DNA of 64,000 nt, taken from positions 489,141-553,140 of the forward strand of contig JBBPIR010000001.1 of NCBI GenBank assembly GCA_038040195.1. Reading direction: 5' to 3'. Shown in pieces: positions 39,525 to 44,114 of this stretch. Each line of letters starts with the position of its first letter. Within the stretch, counting starts at the first letter, position 1. The position numbers and the translations under genes were made by a program. The DNA is from Chloroflexota bacterium (GTDB taxonomy: Bacteria; Chloroflexota; Limnocylindria; QHBO01). The notes under the pieces are model-generated. The model had not been told where the DNA came from. It worked only from the letters and a program-made list of their open reading frames with translations, and ran no database searches.

Positions 39525-40373
39525 ATGGCGATCCCCGGCTCCGGCCTGCTCACCGGCATGGGCGTCACCCTGCGCAACCTCTTCCGCCCCAAGGTGACGC
39601 AGCAGTACCCCGAGGTGCGCCCCGCCATGGCGGAGCGTTGGCGGGGTCGGCTGGACCTGATCTACGACCCGTTCGGGGAGCACAAGTGCGAGGTCTGCTT
39701 CCAGTGCGCCATGGTGTGCCCGGTGGAAGCCATTGACATGAGCGGCTTCGACTCGCAGGGCAACAAGATCCGATACGGGCTGCCCGAGATCTACGACGAG
39801 CGCCGGGACCCCAACGCCTTCCGACGGGCCGGCCTTCCATCCAGACCGATGCGCAACGCGGCGCGCTGGGAGGAAGCGGTAGATGACGCCTGGGTCGACC
39901 AGGTCGTAGATGGATTTGGCGGGCGTCCGGAGTCGCTGGTGGCCATCTTCGTCGCGGTCCAGACCCGATACGGGTACCTGCCCGAGCCCGCGTTGCGCCG
40001 GATCAGCGACAGGATGACGATCCACTGGGCCCAGGTCTTCGGGGCTGCCGGGCTGGGCGGCTTCCGGCTGCTGCCGACCGAGGGGCACCTGGTCACGGTG
40101 TGCGACTGCGCCGCGTGCCGCTTCGCCGGAGGCGACAAGCTCCTGGCGGCCCTGGAGGAGGAGCTGGGGGTACGGGCCGGGGAGACGACCGATGACGGCG
40201 CATTCACCCTGGAGACCGATGCGAGCGTGGGAGCGGGCGCGATTGCGCCGGCGGTGCGGATCGACACCCTGGTATACGGGCCGCTCAACGTCGACGAGGC
40301 ACGCCACCTGATCTACGCCCGGCGGGCGGAGAAGTCCCGCGCCGAGAAGCTCGGCGCCGGGGCGAGCGCCTGA
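39525..40373 (+). CDS. fusion: NuoI N-terminal half (one 4Fe-4S motif) + NuoE-like thioredoxin-fold domain with incomplete 2Fe-2S ligand set
   Basis: aa 1-87 match NuoI N-half (TQQYPEVRP, GEHKCEVCFQCAMVCPVEAIDM, RYGLPEIY); remainder matches NuoE (VQTRYGYLPEP, VTVCDCAAC, GETTDDGAFTLE) but the second Cys pair reads TDASVGAG. Confidence 0.65.
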   Translation: MAIPGSGLLTGMGVTLRNLFRPKVTQQYPEVRPAMAERWRGRLDLIYDPFGEHKCEVCFQCAMVCPVEAIDMSGFDSQGNKIRYGLPEIYDERRDPNAFRRAGLPSRPMRNAARWEEAVDDAWVDQVVDGFGGRPESLVAIFVAVQTRYGYLPEPALRRISDRMTIHWAQVFGAAGLGGFRLLPTEGHLVTVCDCAACRFAGGDKLLAALEEELGVRAGETTDDGAFTLETDASVGAGAIAPAVRIDTLVYGPLNVDEARHLIYARRAEKSRAEKLGAGASA

Positions 40374-41729: not shown

Positions 41730-44114
41730 ATGACCTTCGCAGGCAACGGCAACGGGAAAGGCAACAGCAGCATGGTGGGGCCCTTCGAGGACTACGCCCC
41801 CATCTGGCCGGTGGTGCCCGGCACGCGCAAGATTACGGTCACGATCAATGGCCGCCAGGTCCAGGCCGAGGAGGGCCAGACCATCCTCCAGGCCTGTCGG
41901 GTGCTTGGGCTCGAGATCCCCACCCTGTGCTACGAGCCCAAGCTGTCCCCGTACGGTGCCTGCCGGATCTGCGTGGTCGAGGTGGACGGCCAGGACAACA
42001 CGCCCATCTCGTGCGGGACCGACCTCGCCGAGGGGATGGTCATAACCACCCACTCGGAGCGGGTCATCGAGAACCGCCGCCTGGTGCTGGAGCTGATCTT
42101 CTCGGACCACGACGCGTACTGCCTGCCGCCCTGCCAGTTCAAGTGCCCCACCCGGGTCGACATCCCCGGCTACCTGAAAGCCAACGCGGAGGGCAACTGG
42201 GAAGAGGCGACCCGCATCCTGAAGCGCTCGCTCCCCTTCCCGGCCATCCTGGGTCGGGTGTGCCCCGCCCCCTGCGAGACCCACTGCCGGCGCGAAGAGG
42301 TGGACACCGCCATCGCCATCCGCGACTCGCATCGGTACTGCGCCGACCGGGTCCTGGAGGTGGACGCGCCGGCCCCGCTGCCGTGGCCCAAGGAATCGGA
42401 CACCGGGCGCCGGGTGGCGATCGTCGGTTCAGGGCCCGCCGGCATGACGGTGGCCTACTACCTCCAGCTGCGCGGGCATCACTGCGACGTGTTCGAGGCC
42501 GATCCCGAGCAGGGGGGAATGCTCCGCTACGGGATTCCCGAGTACCGCCTGCCCAACGGCTGGATGGACCGCGAGCTGAACCACGTCTGGGAGCTGGGCG
42601 CCACCTTCAAGCCGAACATGCGCCTGGGCCGCGACTTCCACCTGGCCGATCTGGTGGAGCAGGGCTACGACGCCATCTTCGTGGGCATCGGCTGCTACAA
42701 GCCCAACGAGATGGGGATTCCCGGCGAGGACGCCGACGGGACCGTCAACGCGCTGGAGAACCTGTACAACAGCACCCGCGGCATCCCGGTTCCCGCCCTG
42801 AAGGGGGCCAGCGTGGTGGTCATCGGCGGCGGCTTCACGGCCATCGACTGCACCCGGACCTCCCTCCGCCAGGGCGCAGCCGAGGTCAACCTGGTGTACC
42901 GCCGTGACCTGAAGGACATGCCAGCGCAGGACGAGGTCCACGAGGCCGCCGAGGAAGGCGCCAAGGTCACCTTCCAGGCCGCGCCGGTCCGCATCGTGAC
43001 CGATGCCAAGGGCAAGGTGACCGGGGTCGAGTTCCAGAAGATGCACCTGGGCGAGGCCGATGAGAAGGGCCGGCGCCGGCCGGAGCCCATGCCCGGCACC
43101 GAATTCATCATCGAGTGCGACACGGTCCTGGGTGCCATCGGCCAGGGGCCGGAGCTGGCGTGGATCGACTCCGAGCCCGATGAGATCCGCTCCGGGCTGG
43201 AGGTCAGCCGCCAGGGGCGTCTGGTGGCCGATGCGAACACGTTCCGCACAGGCATCCCCAAGATCTTCGCCGCCGGCGACGTGAACCTGGGGGCCACCAC
43301 CGTGGTGGAGGCCATCGGCGACGGTCGGCGGGCGTCGTATGCCATGGACTACTGGCTCCGCGGCCACGACCTGGACGACCCGCAGGTGCGGCGCATGGTG
43401 TCCGAGCCGCAGCCCTCGTTCCTGACCATCGTGCCCTTCACCGACGACGTGAAGGAGCCCCAGGCGGTGATGGGCAAGCTGGGCGCTGAGGAACGGCGCA
43501 CGAACTTCGAAGAGTACGAGCACGGCTACACCCACGACCAGGCCATGGGCGAGGCCGCCCGCTGCCTGCAGTGCACGTGCGAGGCGATTGGCCACTGCGA
43601 CCTGCGCGAGGCGGCCATCGAGTACGAGACCACCCTGAACATGACGATCGACGAGCGGTCGATCCAGGACAACCCGTATGTCGGCATCAACCACGGCTAC
43701 GGCCGGGACGAGACCCACTCGTTCATCCTGCGCGATTACTCGCGCTGCATCGATTGCGGCCGATGCGCCCAGGTGTGCAAGGACATCGTGGGCGCCGGGT
43801 GCTACGACTTCATCGGAAAGGGCTTCGACTCGCTGGTTACGACCGCCGATTACGTCTCGTTGAACGAAACGCCGTGCGTGTCATGCGGGCGGTGCGCGGA
43901 GACGTGCCCGGTGGGGGCGCTCATGCCGCGGCCGCGGATCCTGGAGACGTACCAGCTCGACGTGAGCCGCTGCATCTTCTGCGGCATCTGCGCCGACGCC
44001 TGCCCCTACGACGCGCTCCGCTGCGGCCCGGAGTTTGAGTTCAGCGAGTACCAGCGCGACCTGCCCATGCTCGACATCCTCGAGATGTCCGACCGGGAGC
44101 GCCCCACCCGCTAG
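41730..44114 (+). CDS. multidomain fusion: NuoG-N-terminal-like 2Fe-2S domain + GltD-like domain (glutamate synthase small chain FAD/NAD(P)H oxidoreductase) + NuoG N4-like 4Fe-4S region + NuoI C-terminal half
   Basis: 794 aa; [36 protein letters not shown]...[10 protein letters not shown] (2Fe-2S); GltD N-terminal Fe-S [11 protein letters not shown] and [60 protein letters not shown]...[18 protein letters not shown] (NuoG N4-like); [29 protein letters not shown] (NuoI C-half). Confidence 0.65.
   Translation: [794 protein letters not shown]

Follow-up and report, generated by a model that had tools for sequence, protein, structure and literature searches.

Introduction

How is NuoI supplied in a complex I operon that has no nuoI gene of its own? 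The question is raised by a 64-kb stretch of DNA with ~70% G+C (contig JBBPIR010000001.1 of assembly GCA_038040195.1, positions 489,141 to 553,140; hereafter the window, within which all positions are given) from a Chloroflexota bacterium of Limnocylindria, an abundant class of soil and freshwater. The nuo cluster of the window lies entirely on one strand (+), in the order nuoA-B-C-D-H, ORF1, ORF2, ORF3, an insert of two genes for a PAS-domain protein and a metallo-beta-lactamase (MBL)-fold hydrolase, and nuoJ-K-L-M-N, and no free-standing nuoI is found between nuoH and nuoJ in the window. In complex I, the NuoI clusters N6a and N6b bridge NuoG to cluster N2 in NuoB, and in 2x[4Fe-4S] ferredoxin folds each cluster is bound by three Cys of one CxxCxxCxxxCP motif and a fourth Cys from the other. 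To the best of our knowledge, NuoI (TYKY/Nqo9), a core subunit of complex I and related complexes, is regarded as invariant and as made of a single chain.

In the window, three genes take the place of nuoI and encode NuoI in two pieces: ORF1 (39525..40373), in which the N-terminal half of NuoI is fused to a NuoE-like domain, ORF2 (40373..41719), a trimmed NuoF-like protein of 448 aa, and ORF3 (41730..44114), which combines a [2Fe-2S] domain, a GltD-type FAD/NADPH domain, NuoG-like clusters and the C-terminal half of NuoI. All 11 core subunits (A, B, C, D, H, I, J, K, L, M, and N) are encoded together, I only as these two fused halves. Judged from sequence, the product is probably a complex I with a Stn-derived and probably NADPH-linked input module that is held by the split NuoI, and such complexes are probably widespread in Limnocylindria.

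The Two Halves of NuoI

A first-pass annotation of this DNA, made from the letters alone, had proposed that ORF1 begins with one half of NuoI and that ORF3 ends with the other, and both placements are borne out. The N-terminal half occupies aa 1–92 of ORF1 (39525..39800), where aa 11–83 match positions 1–72 of the 121-position NuoI profile TIGR01971 (51.6 bits vs a cut-off of 113), aa 8–73 align to residues 6–71 of Thermus Nqo9 (2fug_9) and aa 9–90 align to residues 8–88 of M. smegmatis NuoI (8e9g_I). It contains the first NuoI motif, C55-x2-C58-x2-C61-x3-C65-P66 (39687-39722), followed by the strand ...IRYGLPEIY. The C-terminal half occupies aa 733–794 of ORF3 (43926..44114), where aa 736–777 match positions 71–112 of the same profile (54.8 bits vs 113), aa 723–776 align to residues 73–126 of Thermus Nqo9 and aa 733–776 align to residues 84–127 of M. 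smegmatis NuoI. Its motif, C748-x2-C751-x2-C754-x3-C758-P (hereafter M3), is preceded by a strand and followed by a tail. Neither polypeptide alone carries both CxxCxxCxxxCP motifs or attains the TIGR01971 cut-off. Coverage of NuoI by the two pieces is complementary and almost non-overlapping, as had been predicted, in the profile matches, the structure alignments and an in-silico join of ORF1 aa 1–87 to ORF3 aa 737–794, which gives an uninterrupted match to profile positions 1–112 of 121 (E 9e-31). The overlap is the inter-motif strand (R-x-Y), of which ~5 residues are represented in both pieces; the annotation had noticed this linker strand at both junctions.

The likeness to NuoI extends beyond the Cys motifs, and a search of the window and of 89 related loci, with flanks of up to 10 kb, found no intact nuoI; an intact gene elsewhere and unrelated single-cluster domains were the findings that had been named as contrary to a split NuoI. 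The ORF3 tail past the last Cys motif lies inside the stretches aligned to the NuoI chains and to the NuoI profile, and it resembles the NuoI C-terminal sequences of Thermus and E. coli, which we take to be a NuoI-specific rather than a generic ferredoxin feature. That the halves are generic ferredoxin motifs is ruled out by the fit of ORF1 to the NuoI profile from position 1, by the place of the tail within NuoI alignments and by the uninterrupted joined match. Misassembly or a frameshift, the former raised already in the first-pass annotation, is likewise ruled out by two intact genes between the halves and by the identical gene order in the loci of 80 independent species.

Conservation Across Limnocylindria

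Scanning one genome per GTDB species for the same arrangement, as the annotation had suggested, yielded 335 matches, and the architecture is not unique to this genome. The loci retrieved are the best 80 of the 335; they come from Limnocylindria/Chloroflexota metagenome-assembled genomes, some evidently mislabelled, the closest match is 99% identical, and among the loci are several on contigs of 0.4 to 2 Mb and one on a 2.09 Mb chromosome (OY969424.1). The order nuoA-B-(C)-D-H-ORF1-ORF2-ORF3-[gap]-nuoJ-K-L-M-N is kept in all 80, and the nuoI slot is without nuoI in all 80 as well as in four more distant loci (L001, L004, L005, and L089). Fusions of the ORF1 type gave 548 matches at E<1e-5; the 120 listed are all 73–91% identical and most are full length (270–295 aa), with many labelled Candidatus Limnocylindria, and the search with ORF3 gave a similar result. 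The same order is found in a subgroup (L001, L002, and L005) with an ORF1 that is merely 38–39% identical. One ORF1-type protein, P0242 (282 aa), has an ORF1-like start, Arg/Pro-rich low complexity after the NuoI motif and then an ORF1-like sequence again, and resembles a frameshifted copy or the product of a sequencing error in its assembly.

Conservation was counted in 75–83 Limnocylindria loci, depending on the protein. The four Cys of the ORF1 NuoI motif are conserved in 83/83, all 34 Cys of ORF3 are conserved and all eight NuoI Cys are invariant. Also conserved across the loci are the GltD FAD motif, GGMLRYGIP and the NADPH-type motif ...VYRRD(L/M)KDMPA. The end of ORF3 that includes its last three Cys motifs (M1, M2 and M3) and the NuoI tail (aa 655–794, 43695-44114) is under unusually strong constraint, being 96–100% identical across ~55 species, in which the ORF1 N-terminus is 77–88% and ORF2 66–85% identical. 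By these comparisons, strong purifying selection acts on the arrangement, which is conserved throughout Limnocylindria.

The Genes Between the Halves

In ORF1, the NuoI half is joined to the NuoE-like subunit through a conserved ~32-residue linker (aa 93–124, 39801..39896) that reads DERxDPNAxRRAGLPxxPMRNxARW in the alignment of homologues. The NuoE/BfuC-like, thioredoxin-like domain that follows (aa 125–282, 39897..40373) matches Pfam 2Fe-2S_thioredx (NuoE/HoxE-type) over aa 125–263 (E 8e-25) and aligns to 9bov_C and 7p5h_C. Its [2Fe-2S] site is incomplete: two of the four canonical Cys are replaced in 83/83 loci, the second pair reading ...VGAGAIAP... vs ...CLGCCSLAP..., while C193, an extra C195 and C198 (40101-40118) are invariant and form a C-x-C-x2-C triad. 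An atypical cluster or a metal site in this domain is possible. At the lost Cys pair (40218-40256), the position where the pair began is mostly taken by an acidic residue.

ORF2 has a NuoF/BfuB-like core with an FMN domain, an SLBB domain and an N3-type cluster region. It aligns to 8oh5_B (StnB) and 9bov_B over residues 107–525 of 584, is without the N-terminal [2Fe-2S] thioredoxin-like domain and the C-terminal 2x[4Fe-4S] (B3/B4) domain of Bfu enzymes, and scores 325 bits vs the 559-bit cut-off of TIGR01959. The N3 motif at C353–C359 (41429-41449) reads CGKAVPC, with the middle Cys missing, and is CGK(A/T)(V/I)PC in 76/76 loci vs the canonical CGKCxxC. In the NADEGDPGAF loop (N94–R106, 40652-40690), the sequence is NLMGADPTSL, and NLMGADP(T/S)xL(GDR) is conserved across 82 loci. 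The idea that the NuoE-like and NuoF-like parts are decaying relics is ruled out as stated, since the non-canonical motifs are conserved across 82–83 loci. Cofactor binding by these divergent parts is putative.

ORF3 starts with a NuoG/HydA-type [2Fe-2S] domain (aa 33–109, 41826..42056; Pfam Fer2_4, E 1.5e-21), whose ligands C67, C78, C81, and C95 are kept in 75/75. It is followed by a GltD/NfnB-type domain (aa 132–545, 42123..43364; Pfam Fer4_20 and Pyr_redox_2; PRK12814, E 1.6e-166; aligned to 8oh5_C and 9bov_A) that contains GGMLRYGIP, two [4Fe-4S] motifs and Rossmann folds for FAD (motif GSGPAG) and NADPH (motif GGGFTAID...VYRR). After a further four-Cys motif (C612, C615, C617, and C623) comes a NuoG (Nqo3)-type ferredoxin-like domain (aa 666–731, 43725..43922; Pfam Fer4_Nqo3; aligned to StnC to ~residue 672) with motifs M1 (C673, C676, C679, and C683) and M2 (C716, C719, C722, and C726). 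Against the NuoG model, ORF3 matches only the N-terminal ~95 of 606 positions (98 bits vs a 470-bit cut-off).

The order of E-, F-, and G-N-terminal-like parts between the halves is thus as first described, and what is refined is their identity. By sequence comparison, ORF1–3 are homologues of the StnABC/NfnABC (Bfu-type) transhydrogenases, which are their closest solved relatives rather than NuoEFG proper. ORF3 matches 9bov_A with E 5.7e-169, StnC (8oh5_C) with E 1.8e-147 and NfnA (9n5u_A) with E 2.2e-139, in each case aligned over aa 33–739 or further, the confidence of the StnC alignment falling right after M2, while ORF2 matches 9bov_B and StnB (8oh5_B) with E ~1e-112 and ORF1 matches 9bov_C with E 2e-24. 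Common to the Limnocylindria genes and those of StnABC/NfnABC (8oh5, 9bov, and 9n5u) are the three-subunit set in C-B-A order and a large subunit that has a [2Fe-2S] domain, an inserted GltD domain (FAD and the NADPH YRR motif) and NuoG-like clusters. The two groups differ in that the Stn/NfnABC enzymes are soluble and encoded by a stand-alone three-gene set, whereas the Limnocylindria genes are embedded between nuoH and nuoJ. They also differ in each subunit: ORF1 (the C subunit) gains a NuoI half and has an incomplete cluster site, ORF2 (the B subunit) is without both end domains and ORF3 ends ~60 aa past M2 with a NuoI half where the Stn large subunit has an FdhF-like C-terminal domain.

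Related Arrangements in Other Lineages

More distant NuoI-N::NuoE fusions, with 26–38% identity, were found among 50%-identity representatives, and by domain assignment the split NuoI is present in at least two lineages beyond Limnocylindria and constitutes a multi-lineage family. In the locus L089 (on a 1.84 Mb contig), nuoA-B-C-D-H are followed by a fusion with the full [2Fe-2S] Cys set, a BfuB, a GltD/NuoG-like protein and nuoJ-N. This BfuB is complete (636 aa), with the N-terminal [2Fe-2S] domain, the canonical motifs NGDEGDPGAF and SCGKCVPC and the C-terminal 2x[4Fe-4S] domain, and the GltD/NuoG-like protein has 824 aa and ends in ...CISCGKCAETCPTGAITTNPRLLIRYDLDESRCIFCGDCVEACPYDAL.... 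The locus L003, grouped with L089, has the split as well. The 253-aa fusion family of the L089 type comprises 1201 matches at E<=1e-10, of which one member (P0521) is labelled Thermoleophilia. In L004, nuoH is followed by the fusion, a 1048-aa NuoF-GltD fusion, a 265-aa HoxU-like protein that ends in the NuoI C-half, and nuoJ-N. Canonical N3 and NADEGDPGAF-loop motifs of the ORF2 type are kept in both lineages, and their joined halves score 112.2 (L089) and 111.7 (L004) bits on the NuoI model (cut-off 113). The L004 genes (2076-6023 of that locus) represent a third domain arrangement, and their NuoF part bears an N-terminal thioredoxin-like domain.

Two further loci, L007 (1804-7726) and L008 (2251-7783), carry a related cassette beside pyruvate-oxidoreductase genes and have no nuo genes. 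This soluble variant encodes, besides a half-ferredoxin::NuoE-like protein and a full HydB-like one, a GltD/NuoG-like protein of 1060 aa, in which M1-M2-M3 continue into a PorB-like thiamine pyrophosphate (TPP) domain. The joined halves of these loci match NuoI best of the families listed (72.9 bits), with the first 21 profile positions unmatched. These Por-Bfu-like clusters share with the Limnocylindria operon the half-ferredoxin at the N-terminus of the NuoE-like subunit.

The L089 locus, with its complete BfuB and full C1 Cys set, bears on whether the complex of the window might bifurcate or confurcate electrons. The Bfu family is defined by the BfuBC core, and Nuo-Bfu is a predicted 14-subunit A-N complex I in which BfuABC replace NuoEFG, for example in Geobacter, and which has been reported from members of Nitrospirae, Planctomycetes, Proteobacteria, and Deferribacteres (Schut et al., 2022; PMC9304861). 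Like Nuo-Bfu, the Limnocylindria operon combines a Bfu-related input module with the membrane and quinone-module core of complex I in one operon. A Nuo-Bfu type of enzyme in the window would oxidize NADH (or NADPH) and reduced ferredoxin together and pass the electrons to quinone, and both the homology to Bfu enzymes and the membrane-bound Bfu complexes predicted by Schut et al. (PMC9304861) speak in its favor. We nevertheless regard this as highly improbable for Limnocylindria, where the N-terminal B domain and the B3/B4 domain are absent from the window and from all 83 loci, C1 is short of two of its four Cys and B1 is short of one. The missing elements are those that define the bifurcation site (FMN + B1 + C1) and the ferredoxin exit via B3/B4 (PMC12018979). 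The module of the window should be non-bifurcating because the defining Bfu features, namely complete C1 and B1 ligand sets, the N-terminal domain and the B3/B4 domain, are found neither in the window nor in the 83 Limnocylindria loci.

Proposed Assembly of the Split NuoI and Electron Path

M1 and M2 behave as a unit: Fer4_Nqo3 spans aa 666–731 of ORF3 and aa 142–209 of the L004 HoxU-like protein, and the alignment to StnC is confident through M2. If M1 and M2 form a domain of the Nqo3 type, M3 and the ORF1 motif (M0) are left without a partner in cis and would have to pair in trans. We consider it likely, on the basis of these alignments, that the two halves reassemble in trans into the fold of N6a and N6b, tethering a non-bifurcating and probably NADPH-linked module to the quinone module. 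The input module would be clasped onto the quinone module because each NuoI half is covalently joined to an input-module subunit.

Based on the Stn enzymes, we propose the following path. In Stn, NADPH reduces the FAD of the GltD domain and electrons follow a cluster chain to the StnB flavin, while a second branch, which points to the FdhF-like domain, is a dead end; StnC alone has NADPH:viologen activity (PMC10482914). In the Limnocylindria complex, the halves of ORF1 and ORF3 would pair into a 2x[4Fe-4S] fold that holds N6a and N6b, and this rebuilt fold would be seated on NuoB/D/H as NuoI is. Hydride would enter from NADPH at the FAD of the GltD domain, and the divergent NuoF-like flavin site may accept it from NADH as well. 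Since a NuoI half replaces the FdhF-like domain of Stn, the former dead-end branch may be the exit: electrons would flow through the ORF3 cluster chain, the M1/M2 ferredoxin-like domain and the split-NuoI clusters to N2 in NuoB and on to quinone, driving proton pumping.

Several points weigh against this proposal. The joined NuoI scores 106 bits, just under the curated cut-off of 113. AlphaFold2 models were unusable, both for the joined NuoI (single sequence; pLDDT, the model's per-residue confidence score, 36) and for ORF3 aa 640–794 (64-row alignment; pLDDT 33). NADPH as the donor is supported, the support consisting of motif conservation and homology. Oxidation of NADH at ORF2 is possible but, given its non-canonical NuoF-like flavin/NADH loop and N3 ligand set, uncertain. 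The search for nuoI spanned 64 kb of the source genome and at most 20 kb of each other genome. Finally, M3 lies only 21 residues past M2, and the two can be aligned together to both motifs of E. coli NuoI.

The last point would suit a pairing in cis, in which M2 and M3 of ORF3 alone form a 2x[4Fe-4S] domain and M0 either partners M1 or ligates a cluster at a different interface; the M2–M3 spacing is ferredoxin-like, and Pfam Fer4_7 and Fer4_9 span ORF3 aa 716–762. This pairing is nonetheless improbable, as M1 and M2 fit the Nqo3 ferredoxin-like profile and align with StnC as a unit, the flanks of M0 and of M3 correspond to the N- and C-terminal parts of NuoI, respectively, and jointly cover the profile gap-free, and the layout is repeated in the HoxU-like protein of L004.

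The extent of the nuoI search, which covered the window and flanks, leaves room for a different view of the operon, namely that ORF1–3 encode a soluble Stn-like transhydrogenase that merely lies inside it and that the complex obtains NuoI from an intact gene elsewhere in the genome or has none. The closest solved relatives of ORF1–3 are indeed soluble, and the related cassette of L007 and L008 adjoins pyruvate oxidoreductase genes without any nuo genes. Against such an interleaving of two enzymes stands the NuoI character of both pieces: ORF1 fits the NuoI profile from position 1, the ORF3 tail lies within NuoI alignments and the last 140 aa of ORF3, C-half included, are 96–100% identical across species. 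Moreover, nuoI is gone from its slot in all 80 loci and in the four distant ones, and ORF3 is without the FdhF-like domain that mediates the Stn tetramer (PMC10482914). We therefore judge the interleaving to be quite unlikely and retain assembly in trans as the preferred explanation.

Comparison with Other Complexes, Origin and Implications

With canonical complex I (Thermus Nqo1-9, E. coli, and M. smegmatis), the Limnocylindria operon shares the membrane-arm and quinone-module genes in their usual order, the tandem-Cys N2 motif of NuoB, all eight NuoI Cys and the E-, F-, and G-N-terminal-like domains. It differs from canonical complex I in that NuoI is in two pieces fused to other subunits, the input module is in the nuoI slot (H to J) rather than between D and H, the C-terminal molybdopterin-like domain of NuoG is absent, a GltD FAD/NADPH domain is inserted, and the ligand sets of the NuoE [2Fe-2S] cluster and of NuoF N3 are incomplete. 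In Mbx-like operons of Thermotoga and proteobacteria, a gltD-related flavoprotein replaces the NuoI-type subunit (Degli Esposti, 2015; PMC4758237). Those operons share with Limnocylindria a GltD-type NAD(P)H flavoprotein at the NuoI position of a complex-I-related operon; by their description, however, the NuoI homologue is substituted and the operons are of the Mbx/Mbh type, whereas Limnocylindria retain NuoI in split form together with a full Nuo set including L, M, and N. The terms "NuoI" and "fused" are absent from the text of PMC9304861, which also covers Mbh-Bfu and Por-Bfu, and neither a split NuoI nor an operon of this type was found described in a limited open-access corpus, in agreement with the first impression that the gene architecture is undescribed.

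The most economical origin would be that a Stn-like cassette was inserted into nuoI of an ancestor with the 11 genes nuoABCDHIJKLMN and that the junction strand was duplicated in the process. More tentatively, and with somewhat less than even confidence, we suggest that Limnocylindria took a second, independent route from the 11-subunit core to a pyridine-nucleotide dehydrogenase, in which a portable cassette of the Stn/Nfn type was inserted in the middle of nuoI, NuoI exists only as a trans-assembled half-ferredoxin heterodimer and the enzyme is a proton-pumping NADPH:quinone oxidoreductase. If both flavin branches also work, the complex would be a membrane-coupled three-way junction of NADH, NADPH and quinone. 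In this view the cassette with its NuoI halves would also have moved to other partners, such as pyruvate oxidoreductase, and would be a portable plug for docking sites of the ferredoxin type.

A naturally split NuoI is conserved across hundreds of species of Limnocylindria, and, if the proposed assembly is right, two separate chains apparently suffice to form the 2x[4Fe-4S] bridge, an echo of its presumed half-ferredoxin ancestor. The operon would offer a concrete case of an electron-input module recruited to the 11-subunit core, which is relevant to how complex I acquired its N-module, a long-standing question, and it points to a second way of wiring such a module onto a proton pump. A respiratory complex I fed by NADPH is predicted because the GltD-type NADPH site is intact and the bifurcation core is degraded; to the best of our knowledge, NADPH-fed complex I is otherwise known only from engineered E. 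coli NuoF variants. Under their current annotation as NuoE, NuoF and glutamate synthase/formate dehydrogenase, these genes leave the genomes without a reported NuoI, and metabolic reconstructions for Limnocylindria and the second lineage would be distorted as a result.

Operon Layout and Neighboring Genes

The operon begins with nuoA (35650..36009; an ORF whose ortholog in related loci is Oxidored_q4) and nuoB (36000..36629; ortholog Oxidored_q6), which encodes the N2 cluster subunit and whose translation directly contains the N2 motifs, the tandem Cys and GCPPRPE. The start of nuoC (~36719..37204; ortholog Complex1_30kDa) is uncertain, as its frame is open from 36359 and the GTG at 36719 is the first ATG/GTG/TTG past the nuoB stop. 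Because nuoD (37201..38484; ortholog Complex1_49kDa) abuts nuoH (38494..39513; Pfam NADHdh, E 1.8e-110), there is no nuoE, nuoF, or nuoG in the canonical place between them, as had been observed earlier. Packing remains tight within the cassette, where ORF1 and ORF2 share one base (TGATG overlap) and 10 nt separate the ORF2 stop from the ORF3 start.

ORF3 is followed by the PAS-domain gene (44156..44560; Pfam) and the MBL-fold hydrolase gene (44557..45402; Pfam), the products of which are probably outside the complex; the insert is confined to the closest relatives, and other species carry different content there. The ORF3–nuoJ junction (44115-45432) is a variable insertion site in an otherwise rigid operon, with a gap that ranges from ~80 nt to ~5 kb: it is ~80–100 nt in L050, L081, and L083 and ~4.6–5 kb in L021 and L023, and in L021 it holds a HAD-family hydrolase and unassigned ORFs. 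Both terminator-like matches in 43900-45600 fall within the PAS and MBL coding sequences. Downstream are nuoJ (45433..45975; Pfam Oxidored_q3, E 1.3e-34), nuoK (45979..46287; ortholog Oxidored_q2), nuoL (46355..48529; ortholog Proton_antipo_N/M), nuoM (48510..50057) and nuoN (50065..51516), the last two being ORFs identified via their orthologs. The start of the nuoL ORF (46355-46680, the first ~105 aa) encodes an acidic, His-rich stretch of ~100 aa, …EHAEHDDEHGAGAGHDTGGDAHASHAE…, ahead of the first transmembrane segment. This stretch may be a true extension or the result of an over-long start call, both being possible, and tblastn matches in close relatives span it.

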